Source: a virus
Lineage: Duplodnaviria; Heunggongvirae; Uroviricota; Caudoviricetes
Reading direction: 5' to 3' (one strand)
IMG/VR virus record: IMGVR_UViG_2923307698_000010
Length of the DNA: 9,209 bases
Each line of letters starts with the position of its first letter. Position 1 is the stretch's first letter. Both the position numbers and the translations under genes were made by a program. The notes beneath the pieces are model-generated. The model had not been told where the DNA came from and searched no databases. It saw only the letters and a program-made list of their open reading frames with translations. Positions 1,215 to 5,244 of this stretch are shown piece by piece.

Positions 1215-2133
1215 GTTCACAGATAAAACACTCTCCAGGAAACCCGGGGCGGTTCAGGTCTTCGCGTTTTTCGGTGTACGTGCTGACGGACGGCGATAAG
1301 CGCAGGGAAAGCTCATCCCATTTTTCCCGCAGCTTCGACGGGCTGAGCACGTTACGGCACCAGAACGGATCGCGACTGACGCGGCTGTACATCTCGCAGA
1401 TTTGTTTATGAGTACGACCATCCTGCACACACATCAGGCGAATTTCGTTTGCCCAGGCTGTCCAGTTCGGTTCTTTGGGACGAACCACCTCGCCGTCACA
1501 TTCGGCGGCATGCTCGTACAGGGCGATGATTTTTTTCCAGAGCCACTGTGCGCAGGTCAAATCATCCTGCGTCCCCCACTGGCGCTTTTTAGGGCTGAAT
1601 ACAACCGCATCAGGATGGCGAGTTAAAAAATCCTGTTCAGCCGTCTGCGTGTCCGGTTGCGAAGAGTCCGGACGAGAAGGTTTTTTATCTGACGGATCAT
1701 GTTTTGATTTTACTGACGGATCCCCGCCAGATTCTGACGGGTGAAAACCCGCTTTTTTGCCAGATTTCGACGCATCAAATTTTGACGGGTCAGATTTTGA
1801 TGCGTCAGATTTTGACGGGTCAGAATCTGACAGTTGAGAAAATGCCGCTGCCTGAAGCTTCGCAACGTTAAGCTGATAAACATTCGACGCATTGCGGTTA
1901 CCCTGGCGACGCGCCTTACGCGTTAACCAGCCTTCTGCTTCCAGCCGTGCGATAGCCGTTCTGACGGTACTCATCCCCGCGCCAATCTGGCGGGCAATGG
2001 TTTCAATCGATGGCCAGCACACACCTTCGTCATTACTGAAATCAGCCAGGCGGGCCATAATTGCCACGCTGGATAATTTCATGCCTGACGCTGCGCAACC
2101 ATCCCATACATAGCCGGTTAATTTAGTGCTCAT
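1096..2133 (-). CDS. Lambdoid replication initiation protein (O-like, N-terminal HTH); 3' end fused into IS629
   Basis: ATG at 2133-2131 with a GAGG ribosome-binding site upstream. N-terminal HTH (…SIETIARQIGAGMSTVRTAIARLEAEGWL…) and an acidic/Ser-Lys linker encoded by the iterons. The ORF crosses the IS boundary at 1257/1256, so the last ~53 codons (1256-1096) are IS-derived and not native. Confidence 0.8.
   Translation of the reverse strand: MSTKLTGYVWDGCAASGMKLSSVAIMARLADFSNDEGVCWPSIETIARQIGAGMSTVRTAIARLEAEGWLTRKARRQGNRNASNVYQLNVAKLQAAAFSQLSDSDPSKSDASKSDPSKFDASKSGKKAGFHPSESGGDPSVKSKHDPSDKKPSRPDSSQPDTQTAEQDFLTRHPDAVVFSPKKRQWGTQDDLTCAQWLWKKIIALYEHAAECDGEVVRPKEPNWTAWANEIRLMCVQDGRTHKQICEMYSRVSRDPFWCRNVLSPSKLREKWDELSLRLSPSVSTYTEKREDLNRPGFPGECFICELRLPDHRFRWKHNKLFLLLPGEYGPAFPAIVDCYTSPPT
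1217..1256. repeat. IS629-like right terminal inverted repeat
   Basis: Sequence GTTCACAGATAAAACACTCTCCAGGAAACCCGGGGCGGTTCA lies immediately after the orfB stop; its reverse complement begins TGAACCGCCCCGGG, the remembered IS629 terminus. Exact boundary may be off by 1-3 bp. Confidence 0.7.
1687..1833. repeat. Iteron array (putative prophage replication origin) inside the replication gene
   Basis: Five contiguous ~15-bp tandem units at 1761-1833 (CAGATTTCGACGCAT / CAAATTTTGACGGGT / CAGATTTTGATGCGT / CAGATTTTGACGGGT / CAGAATCTGACAG), plus three dispersed CTGACGG(A/G)T copies at 1687-1742. Mirrors lambda ori lying within gene O. Confidence 0.6.
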
Positions 2134-2142
2134 GACCGACCT

Positions 2143-2481
2143 CTATTTCCCTGAATTTACGACGAAACTGTTCGAGCGGACTGAAGCACTCATGCTCATA
2201 GCCTTCGCGGAGGTAGATAACCCGTTGTGTTTCCGGTTCCCAACGAATGACTCTGACGGGCACTCCGTAGTGATCTTTGAACCAGCGGTTAACTTGTCGC
2301 AAAGGACTGTCTCCTTCTGCCGGTTGAAATCCCCCACAGCCCACTCTGCAAAGCTGTGGGTTACAATTTCCCTGTCACCTGGTACATTCACTGCATAGCA
2401 ATATTCCACCTTCGCTTTTCCACCCGGTACAGGAAGCGCAATCAGTTGCGAGCGACGGTAGTGTGTTGTTAAACTGTTCAT
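2143..2481 (-). CDS. Hypothetical early-right protein; 3' third probably out of frame (see frameshift finding)
   Basis: ATG at 2481-2479 overlaps the stop of the upstream CII-like gene (ATGA coupling) and has a GGAGA ribosome-binding site. After ~codon 50 the amino-acid and codon usage deteriorate, while the -1 frame (ORF 2123-2344) looks coding and ends 11 nt inside the rep start. Confidence 0.4.
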
Positions 2482-3047
2482 GCGTTAGTTTCTCCACAAC
2501 CAGAAGCAATCGACGCCACGACGCCCGGAGCTGCACACTCGCGGGCGTCATTACTTTCTGAAATGCAAAAGATTTTGTAGACCAGTGCTGCATGCTCCTG
2601 CAGCTTCGAAATTGAGAGATACAGCTCGTCGTTAATTGCTGTCTTCTCATGCGGTTCCACTACACCGTCTTCGATTGCTGAACGAATCTGTTTTGAATAA
2701 CTGCCGATCTGTTCAATGACTTCCAGCAGACGCTGGTTAATATCGGCGTTGTCCACATCCTCGACGTCAGGAAGCGACACAAAGACGCCATTTGCAGACT
2801 GCGCCACAGCATCAGCAATGAAGTGAGTGCCACCAGCACGCTGTAAAACCATTGCCCATCCCAGCGGGAAAATCTGATCGCCATCTGCACGAAGGCGGTT
2901 GAATAAAGCGTTTTCTGTTACATCGAGCCAGTCAGCCGCTTCAGCGTAACCACCCGGCAACGCCGCGATAGTTTTTCTGACAGCTTTCACGTACCACTCA
3001 GGCTGTTTTTCTATTTTCCAGTGATGCTTACCCACGATTAGCCTCAT
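2478..3047 (-). CDS. CII-like lysogeny regulator (YdaT / phage CII CP76-type), HTH plus coiled-coil
   Basis: 189-aa ORF directly downstream of the cro-like gene. N-terminal HTH-like segment ([22 protein letters not shown]) and a helical C-terminal half. An alternative GTG start at 3035 has a better GAGG ribosome-binding site than the ATG at 3047. Family assignment is from memory. Confidence 0.65.
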
Positions 3048-3078
3048 CGTTCTGTGGTTAAAAATTGAAAGTGTTCTG

Positions 3079-3279
3079 CTAATCTTTCGGATAGATATCC
3101 GGTCTTAAGTCAGATTTCGTAATTGCACCTGACGTGCATTGCTCAAGTTTTTTAGCCAGCACAAAACTGGCTTTTTTATAGCCATTGAAAACCAGCCGTA
3201 AGTAGCCAGGAGTTGAGCCAACTTTTCCGGCCAACTCGCCCTGCTGTTCTTTGGTTAAAGAGTCCCAATACGCTTTCAT
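3079..3279 (-). CDS. Cro-like small HTH regulator (YdaS/Cro family)
   Basis: 66-aa ORF from ATG at 3279-3277 with a GGAGG ribosome-binding site ~8 nt upstream. Divergent from the cI-like gene with operators in between. The longer six-frame ORF to 3582 is rejected because it runs through the operator region and into cI. Confidence 0.7.
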   Translation of the reverse strand: MKAYWDSLTKEQQGELAGKVGSTPGYLRLVFNGYKKASFVLAKKLEQCTSGAITKSDLRPDIYPKD

Positions 3280-3369
3280 ACAATATGTACCTCCGGTGTA
3301 CATATTACATGATTGAAATGAACCTTCAAGATACTTGTACCTTAACGGTACAAGGGTTTTAATTTCGTT
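3280..3369. promoter_or_regulatory. Divergent operator/promoter region (oR-like) between cro-like and cI-like genes
   Basis: Two palindromes with a TGTAC core: ATATGTAC-N7-GTACATAT (3283-3305) and CTTGTACC-ttaac-GGTACAAG (3334-3354). Candidate minus-strand promoter TTGAAG(3329-3324)-16-TAATAT(3307-3302) for cro; candidate plus-strand TTGTAC(3335-3340)-17-TTTAAT(3358-3363) for cI. Confidence 0.55.
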
Positions 3370-4044
3370 ATGAAAACAATCCATGACATCCGGCGGTCTA
3401 ACGCCAGAAAACTGAGAGATGGTGTTGGAGGGAATTCTTCCTTTGCCACTATGATTGATCGCGAGCCAACCCAGACCAGCAGGTTTATGGGAGATGGTGC
3501 TACTAAAAATATCGGTGACAGCATGGCACGACACATCGAAAAATGTTTCGACCTGCCTGTCGGATGGCTCGATCAAGAACACCAGACAACGAACATCACA
3601 AAAAAACCTGATGTTTCAATCACTAATAAACAAATCACATTAGTCCCTGTCATATCATGGGTACAGGCCGGAGCATGGAAAGAAGTTGGATATTCTGAGG
3701 TTGATTTGAGCACAGCAGAAACGTATCCCTGCCCTGTACCCTGTGGGGAAATGACTTATATCTTGCGGGTGATAGGTGATTCAATGATTGATGAGTACCG
3801 CCCGGGAGACATGATTTTTGTCGATCCTGAAGTACCTGCCTGCCACGGTGACGACGTTATTGCATTGATGCACGATACAGGTGAAACCACCTTCAAAAGG
3901 TTGATAGAAGATGGGACACAGCGTTATCTCAAAGCGTTAAACCCAAACTGGCCTGAGCCTTACATTAAGATCAACGGTAATTGCTCTATAATTGGAACTG
4001 TGATTTTCTCAGGAAAACCAAGAAGATACAAAATCAAAGCCTAA
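3370..4044 (+). CDS. CI-type prophage repressor with C-terminal LexA-like S24 autopeptidase domain
   Basis: 224 aa. N-terminal HTH region, an Ala-Gly candidate cleavage site (VQAGAW), a Ser nucleophile in the GDSM motif and a downstream Lys (FKRLIEDG), as in LexA/lambda CI. Confidence 0.88.
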   Translation: MKTIHDIRRSNARKLRDGVGGNSSFATMIDREPTQTSRFMGDGATKNIGDSMARHIEKCFDLPVGWLDQEHQTTNITKKPDVSITNKQITLVPVISWVQAGAWKEVGYSEVDLSTAETYPCPVPCGEMTYILRVIGDSMIDEYRPGDMIFVDPEVPACHGDDVIALMHDTGETTFKRLIEDGTQRYLKALNPNWPEPYIKINGNCSIIGTVIFSGKPRRYKIKA

Positions 4045-4056
4045 TCAATGTTTATG

Positions 4057-4079
4057 AACCTGCTTCGGCAGGTTTTTTT
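4057..4079 (+). terminator. Rho-independent terminator after the cI-like gene
   Basis: AACCTGC-ttcg-GCAGGTT hairpin followed by T7 (4073-4079), 13 nt after the cI stop. Confidence 0.65.
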
Positions 4080-4083
4080 ATAC

Positions 4084-4117
4084 TTGACAATGTACCTATG
4101 AGATACATAATGTACCC
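4084..4117 (+). promoter_or_regulatory. pL-like sigma70 promoter with operator repeats (oL-like)
   Basis: TTGACA (4084-4089), 16-bp spacer, CATAAT (4106-4111). Overlapped by direct repeats AATGTACC (4089-4096 and 4109-4116) and the inverted repeat ATGTA-N9-TACAT (4090-4108), the same TGTAC core as the oR palindromes. Confidence 0.55.
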
Positions 4118-4196
4118 AAGAGAAACAACAAACAGGCAGGACGCCCACGAAGTAGCCGCCTGGGGCATATGAAGTCCAGGATGATTCGTTAGCAAC

Positions 4197-4218
4197 AAAA
4201 AAGCGCCCTACAGGACGC
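4197..4218 (-). terminator. Rho-independent terminator of the convergent minus-strand gene
   Basis: On the minus strand: GCGTCC-tgta-GGGCGC hairpin followed by U6 (plus-strand A-run 4197-4202), ~40 nt after the stop at 4259. Confidence 0.5.
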
Positions 4219-4221
4219 TTA

Positions 4222-4233
4222 GCTCTTTAACAA
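4222..4233 (+). promoter_or_regulatory. boxA-like element (GCTCTTTAACAA) in the pL-proximal transcript
   Basis: 12-nt identity to the remembered rrn boxA core (GCTCTTTAACAA), ~110 nt downstream of the pL-like promoter. No convincing boxB hairpin follows. Confidence 0.3.
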
Positions 4234-4250
4234 TCTGGATATCCACAACA
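4232..4250. repeat. Left copy of 19-bp inverted repeat (AATCTGGATATCCaCAACA) flanking the minus-strand gene
   Basis: Matches the reverse complement of 4793-4811 at 18 of 19 positions; contains the perfect 10-bp palindrome TGGATATCCA. Confidence 0.6.
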
Positions 4251-4258
4251 GTAGTAAT

Positions 4259-4750
4259 CTACAGATTGCCGTTAAGTTTTCTGGACAACTCCTCAATGGA
4301 TGGAGGCGATACGTAATCCGGATTTTTATTCATCAGAAACTTATTTTCACAGTGGAGGCACCTGCTTTTATGAAAAAGCTCATCTTCGCTAACCGGGAAT
4401 GGTTGAAGTATCGATACTATCTTTTGTCCAAAACATTTTGGGCAAAGATGCATGGTTATGCTGCCACCGTTCACGATTACCTCCTTCGAGTATACAAAAG
4501 TACCCGACTCAAGTTGGTTAAGGATATAGCCTTCCGTCTGAGCCTCAAAGTTTTCGAATTCTGCAATTTTAGCTTTGAGAGAAGCATTTATTTCTTGATA
4601 AGAGCCCACCAGTTCAACGAGAGACACGCATTCGCGCTGAATAGACGCAAGCTTTGAGTTCAGCTCACCAATAGCCGCATTTACTTCAGCTTGAGTTTTT
4701 GCCTCGTTCATTAGTTTTGCAATCTGGGCTGTTTCACGAATAGCCGTCAT
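4259..4750 (-). CDS. Hypothetical protein: N-terminal coiled-coil plus C-terminal CxxC…CxxC zinc ribbon; moron-like gene between cI/pL and the early-left operon
   Basis: Start taken at ATG 4750-4748 (alternative GTG at 4774 with an AAGAG ribosome-binding site). Residues upstream to 5038 are Arg-rich, low-complexity and cross the inverted repeat and GC-rich leader, so are judged non-coding. Own terminator at 4197-4218. AT-rich relative to flanks by eye. C-terminal motif CPKC…(20 aa)…CLHC. Confidence 0.6.
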   Translation of the reverse strand: MTAIRETAQIAKLMNEAKTQAEVNAAIGELNSKLASIQRECVSLVELVGSYQEINASLKAKIAEFENFEAQTEGYILNQLESGTFVYSKEVIVNGGSITMHLCPKCFGQKIVSILQPFPVSEDELFHKSRCLHCENKFLMNKNPDYVSPPSIEELSRKLNGNL

Positions 4751-4792
4751 TGCTGCCGTTAATTCAGCGATCACATTGAATACTCTTATTGT

Positions 4793-4811
4793 TGTTGGGG
4801 ATATCCAGATT
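4793..4811. repeat. Right copy of 19-bp inverted repeat (TGTTGgGGATATCCAGATT)
   Basis: Reverse complement of 4232-4250 with one mismatch. Embedded in a 13-bp direct repeat TTGTTGTTGGGGA (4789-4801 and 4822-4834). Confidence 0.6.
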
Positions 4812-5061
4812 AACCGAATCCTTGTTGTTGGGGAATAACCAGGTCCACCTCGCCTGATGTGGCTAAAAGCAGGCACATAACAGCTAAGTATTTTCAACCA
4901 GAGAGAATCCTTAGCGTTGTGGTGAATGCGGCTCAGCGCACGCGGGTTAAGGTTGAGGCTGACAGTCGACCTTCTGTGGATACCCACCCGCCTGGTGTGC
5001 AACCTTCGCCAGGCACCGGGAGGCACCCGGCACCACAAGTTTATGCTGTGTGTAGTCCTGG

Positions 5062-5107
5062 CGGTACCAGTTTGTACCCTTGCTTCCGGCTGGTACCGTC
5101 CTTTTTT
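5062..5107 (+). terminator. Intrinsic terminator in the leader upstream of yfdP
   Basis: 9-bp stem CGGTACCAG (5062-5070) / CTGGTACCG (5090-5098) with a 19-nt loop, followed by T6 (5102-5107). Confidence 0.55.
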
Positions 5108-5244
5108 GCAAAACAGAGAAGAGCATCACCGGACGACGGGCTCATAACCCAATCCATCCGGGCGGCTGCCACCGCAGGTGTTCTTCTCTGTTTTGTGGAG
5201 AAACCAACCGACCTTGCAGGGTCGATATGATGAGGAGCAGCAAA

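Follow-up and report, generated by a model that had tools for sequence, protein, structure and literature searches.

Leaderless repressor mRNA and putative TGTACC-N5-GGTACA operators in the immunity region of an e14/SfV-type lambdoid prophage of Escherichia coli

A short gap between two divergent phage genes raises two linked questions: does it hold the operators of a lambda-type immunity switch, and is the repressor mRNA that starts there made without a leader? The gap comprises the 90 bp at 3280–3369, between the start codon of a cro-like gene (CAT at 3277–3279, minus strand) and the ATG of a cI-like gene at 3370. Positions are those of the window, the whole 9,209-nt stretch of prophage DNA that was analysed. 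The two genes and the regulatory gene next to them are as follows.

3079–3279, minus strand: cro-like gene ymfT/croE, 66 aa (open reading frame and translation, RefSeq name, 'cro' annotation in phage SfV)
3370–4044, plus strand: cI-like repressor gene ymfK/cohE, 224 aa, with a putative N-terminal DNA-binding domain and an S24 self-cleaving domain
2478–3047: ymfL (CII/CP76 family), downstream of cro

The segment 3000–4250 was matched in 2170 E. coli records, corresponding to 2166 of 5426 complete genomes (~40%), with 100% identity in many of them. The RefSeq names on the matching E. coli DNA are ymfL, ymfT (YdaS family helix-turn-helix protein) and ymfK (LexA family protein). Phages PhiR29, PhiR49, SfIV and SfV are 98–99.9% identical to this segment, and the SfV and SfIV records label the two genes cro and cI. 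The divergent cro-like/cI-like pair proposed in an earlier note on this DNA is, by these names, the e14/SfV immunity pair. The cro-like gene is the first of the rightward, lytic-side operon ymfT-ymfL-ymfM..., which includes the SOS-inducible division inhibitor region ymfM/sfiC. In the SfV entry (GenBank U82619.2) a 'putative operator region', annotated in 2002, corresponds to window 3285–3353, and a 'putative rho-independent terminator' after cI is equivalent to window 4056–4081. The region 3280–3369 holds the control sequences for repressor and Cro in a common E. coli lambdoid prophage of the e14/SfV type, and the switch is an ordinary member of the lambdoid family. Divergent repressor and cro-like genes flank a short regulatory gap, the repressor has a LexA/S24-type self-cleaving C-terminal domain, and several two-fold-symmetric putative operators lie over the divergent promoters, with another set at the early-left promoter.

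The closest known system is prophage e14 of E. coli K-12 MG1655, whose ymfK-ymfT region is identical to window 3260–3390 at every base. The gene order ymfL-ymfT / ymfK is the same, and the OL/pL region differs at a single spacer base. The early-left sides differ: e14 carries ymfJ-ymfH-xisE-intE adjoining icd, whereas the window carries yfdP/Q/R/T-type genes and an intD-type integrase, which adjoins tRNA-Arg in the closest genomes. SfV and SfIV share 98.3–98.6% identity with the window over 3000–4250, and SfV has annotated cI, cro, operator region and cI terminator. The sites of SfV differ from those of the window in the right half of OR1 (GTACA to ATACA) and at two positions of the OR3 spacer; changes of both kinds recur in other relatives.

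Residues 93–212 of the repressor match Peptidase_S24 (Pfam PF00717) with an E value of 1.5e-26, and the C-terminal domain aligns with PDB chains of the lambda CI C-terminal domain at E values of about 2e-9. The translation contains the motifs QAG, GDSM and FKRL, which presumably have a catalytic role like their counterparts in lambda CI. For the first ~90 residues, a Pfam search that allowed E values up to 10 returned no family. A profile built from the N-terminal domains of 14 relatives detected 5d50_A ('Repressor', E 3.8e-5), a chain of the Rep-Ant complex of Salmonella phage SPC32H, and 7nkv_A ('Phage repressor protein CI', E 0.0045). The stretch 3370–3645 (repressor residues 1–92) encodes a Pfam-unmatched domain of a very common E. 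coli prophage repressor that is detectably related to the N-terminal domain of 5d50_A. Its proposed recognition-helix segment, REPTQ-SR, is nearly unvarying in relatives, in step with the fixed half-sites of the putative operators described below. For the cro-like protein, the Pfam hits to YdaS and HTH_3 do not reach the curated cut-offs; ymfL falls into the CII (Phage_CP76) and YmfL regulator families. In K-12, ymfK was classed as essential in three independent studies and its expression is estimated at about 0.4 messages per cell cycle. The essentiality of ymfK, the presence of ymfM/sfiC in the operon and the low message number together fit a repressor that has to remain on yet is made at a very low level.

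The question of the leader is answered by published data from K-12. In Romero et al. 2014 (Mol Microbiol 94:963, PMC4681348), differential RNA-seq served to locate primary 5' ends and revealed five leaderless E. coli mRNAs, three of which encode the prophage regulators dicA, racR and ymfK. In Table S3 of that work the ymfK transcription start site (TSS), RVS_(I)-1202156, is the first base of the start codon and the leader is 0 nt. The position in Table S2, 1202157, is 1 base off, as it is for racR and rhlB, and the ymfK leader is thus no longer than 1 nt, if there is one at all. Fig. S1D presents RLM-RT-PCR for ymfK (PMC4681348). Table S2 has no TSS other than that of ymfK from 1200691 to 1203043, and so neither a forward-strand (pR) TSS nor one at the pL equivalent is listed. 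These data describe steady-state lysogen-like cells. Because 3260–3390 is identical in the two prophages, the start, although measured in K-12 and not in this strain, can be transferred to the window.

3370, plus strand: the leaderless cI-like mRNA begins here, on the A of its ATG (K-12 TSS mapped on identical sequence)

The cI transcript that the earlier note had called possibly leaderless does begin at its start codon, by differential RNA-seq and RLM-RT-PCR on identical K-12 DNA, and the parallel that the note had drawn with lambda pRM holds in that the cI-like mRNA begins at the AUG, as lambda cI does from pRM. The absence of a clear Shine-Dalgarno sequence was also seen correctly: pairing of positions −20 to −1 with the anti-Shine-Dalgarno sequence amounts to −4.3 kcal/mol for cI, against −10.8 kcal/mol for cro. 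The racR (Rac) and dicA (Qin) transcripts are likewise leaderless prophage repressor mRNAs in K-12 (PMC4681348), with other proteins and operators.

Conservation of this arrangement was followed in a scan of one genome per species, which yielded cI homologues with 73–88% identity in Pseudocitrobacter, Klebsiella, Atlantibacter, Leclercia, Phytobacter, Enterobacter, Pantoea, Trabulsiella, Kluyvera, Limnobaculum, Rahnella, Edwardsiella, Entomohabitans and other genera. The cro–cI gap was aligned for 18 sequences, comprising the window, phage SfV and 16 loci from genera other than Escherichia. The conserved blocks of the gap are TGTACCTCC...(G/A)TACA, (A/G)TGAACC, CAAG, TTGTACC-N5-GGTACA and TAAT. 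The window's cI starts with AUG (ATG at 3370), and the lack of a Shine-Dalgarno sequence before cI contrasts with cro in all 18 sequences: anti-Shine-Dalgarno pairing ranges from +1.5 to −5.1 kcal/mol over the 20 nt upstream of cI, and from −10.6 to −11.6 kcal/mol for cro. In 17 of the 18 sequences, 6 nt separate the TAAT of the −10 element from the ATG, in the remaining one 7 nt, and the bases in between vary freely. The fixed distance combined with the missing Shine-Dalgarno sequence indicates conservation of the leaderless design. Over its first 71 nt, the cI mRNA has no unusual structure (z = −0.17). The N-terminal residues MKT..IRR.NAR are conserved from the ATG at 3370 in 14 relatives; together with ymfK being functional and essential in K-12, they lend indirect support to initiation of translation on the 5'-terminal AUG.

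More distant homologues from Comamonas, Variovorax and Giesbergeria (27–38% identity) have other upstream repeats and no obvious Shine-Dalgarno sequence; they are too few for an analysis of helix/operator co-variation. At 1350–1500 of loci L023 (Comamonas) and L024 (Variovorax), homologues of the N-terminal domain with 27–33% identity have no obvious Shine-Dalgarno sequence before their ATG, and the inverted repeats upstream differ, for example TTAGCC/GGCTAA. These two loci hint that the leaderless design may reach well beyond the Enterobacteriaceae.

The promoters, ribosome-binding site and terminator that frame the two genes are listed next.

3335–3363, plus strand: pRM-equivalent cI promoter, −35 TTGTAC at 3335–3340, 17-nt spacer, −10 TTTAAT at 3358–3363
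3302–3329, minus strand: pR, predicted cro promoter, −35 TTGAAG at 3329–3324, 16-nt spacer, −10 TAATAT at 3307–3302
3290–3294, minus strand: Shine-Dalgarno sequence GGAGG of cro, embedded in the OR1 spacer, read from the sequence
4056–4081, plus strand: intrinsic terminator ending the cI transcript, with a T run after an 8-bp stem
4084–4111, plus strand: pL-equivalent early-left promoter, TTGACA-16-CATAAT, with 11/12 consensus matches

The −10 element of the cI promoter lies 6 nt from the ATG, which places the predicted +1 at 3370, and the start mapped in K-12 fits TTGTAC-17-TTTAAT exactly. The earlier note had presented this pair of hexamers as the best plus-strand promoter match. Its arithmetic, with +1 at the ATG, stands, but 'best' was generous, as the candidate TAAAGA-17-TACAAT at 3256–3284 on the same strand scores as well on paper. 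The cI promoter is weak by consensus (8/12 overall, 3/6 at −35), and was called by neither of two scans. Its −10 element is without the A at −11, a base almost never present across the 18 sequences. The pR promoter is the best minus-strand candidate within 3250–3400, with a predicted start near 3295; in relatives its −10 element keeps the A at position 2 and the T at position 6, and the TTG of its −35 element is conserved. The pL promoter sits behind the cI terminator and is almost unvarying across the 18 sequences, as is nearly so for the block TTGACA-A-TGTACC-N5-G(G/A)TACA-TAATGTACC downstream of cI. In K-12 the 11/12-consensus pL and the pR promoter have no mapped start while the 8/12 cI promoter fires, as expected if both promoters are repressed in a repressor-maintained prophage. 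An Rfam search of the whole window found nothing in the switch region, the single match being an IS3 ALIL frameshift pseudoknot at 282–398.

About 70 nt past the pL-like promoter (4128–4195, CAGGCAGGACGCCCACGAAGTAGCCGCC...) show conservation that takes in K-12 e14, SfV and most relatives from other genera, although the next genes differ. This stretch, which includes a terminator-like hairpin on the minus strand at 4148–4132, is a candidate for a conserved leader in the early-left transcript.

The question of the operators begins with two palindromes between the cro-like and cI-like genes. Both had been described in the earlier note and both are present. The palindrome AATATGTAC-N7-GTACATATT spans 3282–3306, with the core TGTAC-N7-GTACA at 3286–3302, and CTTGTACC-N5-GGTACAAG spans 3334–3354, with the same core at 3336–3352. 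The sequence TGTACNNNNNNNGTACA has two exact matches in the whole window, both inside the cro–cI gap. The note had also named a second region, 4084–4117, for repressor binding; the best near-matches were found there, at 4091–4107 (1 mismatch) and 4111–4127 (2 mismatches). At ≤2 mismatches, the palindrome motif has 9 matches in the window against 2.3 expected. The suspected enrichment of TGTACC was confirmed by 12 occurrences against 2.3 ± 1.6 expected, a count reached in none of 200 shuffles. Chance does not explain the palindromes. A weight matrix was built from the strong sites of other genera only and then run across the window. The five putative operators are listed with their matrix scores.

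3286–3302: OR1, TGTACCTCCGGTGTACA, exact TGTAC-N7-GTACA, 22.4 bits
3319–3335: OR2, a weak third operator, TGAACCTTCAAGATACT, 9.1 bits, over the −35 element of pR, centre at −43 from the cI start
3336–3352: OR3, TGTACCTTAACGGTACA, exact match, 22.9 bits (top score), over the −35 element and spacer of the cI promoter
4091–4107: OL1, TGTACCTATGAGATACA, 1 mismatch, 22.6 bits, in the spacer and −10 element of pL
4111–4127: OL2, TGTACCCAAGAGAAACA, 2 mismatches, 14.6 bits, over the pL start

The centres of OR1 and OR3 lie at −76 and −26 relative to the cI start at 3370. OR2 abuts OR3, with centres 17 bp apart, and is 33 bp from OR1. OR1 overlaps the Shine-Dalgarno sequence of cro, the predicted pR start and the final base of the pR −10 element; its TGTACCTCC and TACA are unvarying in the 18 aligned sequences. 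OR3 has an unvarying TTGTACC and a nearly unvarying GGTACA, and the 5 nt between them change with almost every genus. OL1 is a perfect TGTACC-N5-GGTACA in most relatives. OL2 combines a strong left half-site, unvarying in 17 of the 18 sequences, with a degenerate right half, and 0.03 sites with such a score are expected per shuffled window. For OR2, 0.14 sites of its score or better are expected per shuffled window. Its TGAACC is unvarying in all 18 sequences, and most relatives read TGAACC-N5-GGTACT. OR2 is supported because this unvarying half falls in the pR spacer, and the needs of the promoter do not account for its conservation there. The predicted operator consensus is TGTACC-N5-GGTACA, with fixed half-sites and free spacers. 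Such a combination is the mark of a site that a protein touches at its half-sites and not of a hairpin, and the reading of the gap palindromes as putative operators is supported by this pattern. No footprint, EMSA or ChIP data on YmfK or CroE were found in the accessible literature, and a literature search on the operator motif and on cohE/croE returned nothing relevant.

The fifth-ranked matrix match in the window, between OL2 and OR2, is an intragenic 17-mer at 3735–3751 (9.3 bits). It was rejected as an extra operator: its TGTACC arises from Pro-Val-Pro codons, and since the synonymous positions vary freely in 16 relatives, the match is attributed to chance. Outside the operators, seven TGTACC half-sites were counted (2381, 2426, 3660, 3735, 5073, 7199 and 7393) against 2.3 expected for the whole window; the one at 3735 is not conserved, and in ymfM a distance of 45 bp separates those at 2381 and 2426.

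Taken together, the locus is very probably an e14/SfV-type immunity switch in which YmfK/CohE acts at the five putative sites, pR and pL are silent and a leaderless cI mRNA is made from a weak promoter. YmfK/CohE dimers would bind the 17-bp two-fold-symmetric TGTACC-N5-GGTACA sites. Bound at OR1, they would act over the −10 element and start of pR and the ribosome-binding site of cro, and at OR2 over the −35 element of pR; OL1 and OL2 would act in and just after the near-consensus leftward early promoter. In a lysogen the repressor would thereby hold pR and pL silent while cI is transcribed from the weak TTGTAC-17-TTTAAT promoter, with the A of the ATG as its start and with neither leader nor Shine-Dalgarno sequence. 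Cro would probably use the same sites as the repressor. Occupancy of OR2 may activate the weak cI promoter, as lambda OR2 does, and OR3 may mediate negative autoregulation of cI.

Other explanations differ from this scheme in the transcript, in the protein or in the nature of the palindromes. The repressor could also, or mainly, be made from a leadered transcript that starts upstream, with the leaderless form serving maintenance only. Lambda has an establishment promoter, pRE, and a similar source here could be a YmfL-activated promoter in cro/ymfL, in keeping with the regulator families of ymfL (CII (Phage_CP76)/YmfL). Another candidate is TAAAGA-17-TACAAT (3256–3284), which would start near 3291 and whose TACAAT at 3279–3284 is a better −10 element than TTTAAT. 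Neither is seen in the steady-state K-12 data, where the single TSS on the cI strand is at the ATG (Romero Table S2, PMC4681348), but such cells leave room for a promoter active during establishment. Moreover, no Shine-Dalgarno sequence precedes the ATG in 18 of 18 sequences, so a leader would not aid translation in the manner of lambda. A leadered source of repressor is considered unlikely. That the TGTACC-N5-GGTACA sites are bound by another protein, be it the Cro-like YmfT alone, YmfL or a host factor, is less likely still, and very much so. The perfect OR3 over the cI promoter would suit Cro, as lambda Cro binds first at OR3. However, the sites coincide with both early promoters, the very places at which a maintenance repressor has to act, and pR and pL are silent in K-12, where ymfK is a transcribed, essential gene. 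CI and Cro share operators in the known lambdoid switches, and this alternative therefore overlaps with the main model. LexA boxes were rejected as an identity of the sites: a search for CTGT-N8-ACAG at ≤1 mismatch found none in 3280–3369 or 4084–4127, and its total in the window is at chance level.

The palindromes might instead function as RNA hairpins, OR3 with GGTTTTAATTT forming an intrinsic terminator and OR1 masking the ribosome-binding site of cro. A scan does flag 3334–3354 as terminator-like, and the Shine-Dalgarno sequence of cro falls within the loop of the OR1 palindrome. Yet OR3 lies upstream of both the mapped cI start and the predicted cro start, such that neither promoter transcribes it, and the T run after its stem is missing in most relatives; the terminator was rejected on these grounds. 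The predicted pR start (about 3295) is inside OR1, which would leave only half of that palindrome in the cro mRNA. The stems never vary, so that no compensatory change backs the pairing, and the same 17-mer recurs at pL inside a promoter spacer. The hairpin explanation is so improbable that it can nearly be set aside.

The preferred reading, repression by YmfK/CohE at operator sites with a leaderless cI mRNA, assigns to this locus the parts of the lambda switch. As in lambda, cI and cro are divergent, the putative operators are 17-bp two-fold-symmetric sites, and a second cluster of operators is located at pL. One site covers the pR −10 element, one the pR −35 element (about −43 from the cI start) and one the cI promoter. 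In lambda, OR2 is centred at about −42 from the pRM start and is the activating site, and OR3 overlaps pRM. The two switches also share a weak cI promoter whose transcript starts at the AUG, and the S24 domain is homologous to the CI C-terminal domain. The operator sequence differs from that of lambda, as does the spacing, which is 33 and 17 bp here against 23–24 bp in lambda. There are two OL sites here and three in lambda, and OR3 is perfect here and not the weakest site. The Cro protein is of the YdaS helix-turn-helix type, neither N nor cIII has been reported from the SfV type, and the N-terminal domain of the repressor is not recognisably lambda-like by sequence.

The differences bear on how the sites would be filled. 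Since OR3 is perfect and by matrix score as strong a site as OR1, a lambda-like order with OR3 filled last is not evident. Filling of OR3 first would shut the cI promoter, yet the cI TSS is detected in K-12. With spacings of 17 and 33 bp, unlike those of lambda, pairwise cooperativity in the lambda style cannot simply be assumed. It is possible, if on balance doubtful, that the switch is wired unlike lambda with the same parts, combining very tight negative autoregulation (<1 mRNA per cell cycle) with selected leaderless translation of the repressor. The features behind this suggestion are a perfect OR3 over the repressor's own promoter, an abutting OR2, an OR1 three helical turns off, the missing A at −11, the ribosome-binding site of cro inside the OR1 spacer, and a leaderless start whose spacing from the −10 element is held constant across about 15 enterobacterial genera.

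The discovery value is small, because the leaderless ymfK transcript was already published in 2014 on the identical K-12 sequence, the SfV operator region was annotated in 2002 and the module occurs in ~40% of genomes. What is new is modest: a precise operator consensus, a map of five predicted sites and the conservation of the leaderless arrangement across many enterobacterial genera, all drawn from sequence comparison. The locus offers a clean, well-conserved second example of the lambda pRM design, in which a weak promoter starts at the AUG of the repressor, and the consensus and site map would make footprinting and reporter work straightforward. The module has practical relevance as well: it keeps the SOS-inducible division inhibitor ymfM/sfiC silent, and Stx2c and serotype-converting phages carry it.

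Compared with e14, the window copy of the prophage has an IS3-family insertion and a nonsense codon in its integrase gene. The IS3-family element occupies 1–1256, with orfA at 1–327, orfB at 327–1214 and the ALIL pseudoknot (RF01497) noted above. It is inserted in a prophage gene of the HTH/replication type, and a minus-strand open reading frame at 1096–2133 runs into it. The remainder, 1257–9209, is 100% identical to several E. coli chromosomes without an IS at that place. The intD-type integrase gene at 8046–9209 contains an in-frame TAG at 8748–8750 (G8749A), which changes Trp235 to a stop relative to the intact gene in NZ_CP027342. The insertion and the stop codon suggest that the prophage is defective with an intact immunity region. 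Between pL and the yfdP/Q/R/T-type early genes, the minus strand at 4259–4774 encodes a hypothetical 171-aa coiled-coil-like protein with no significant Pfam family. The gene is convergent to the pL transcript, with a terminator at 4201–4220, and looks like an inserted accessory gene ('moron'), as it is absent from e14 and SfV at that position.
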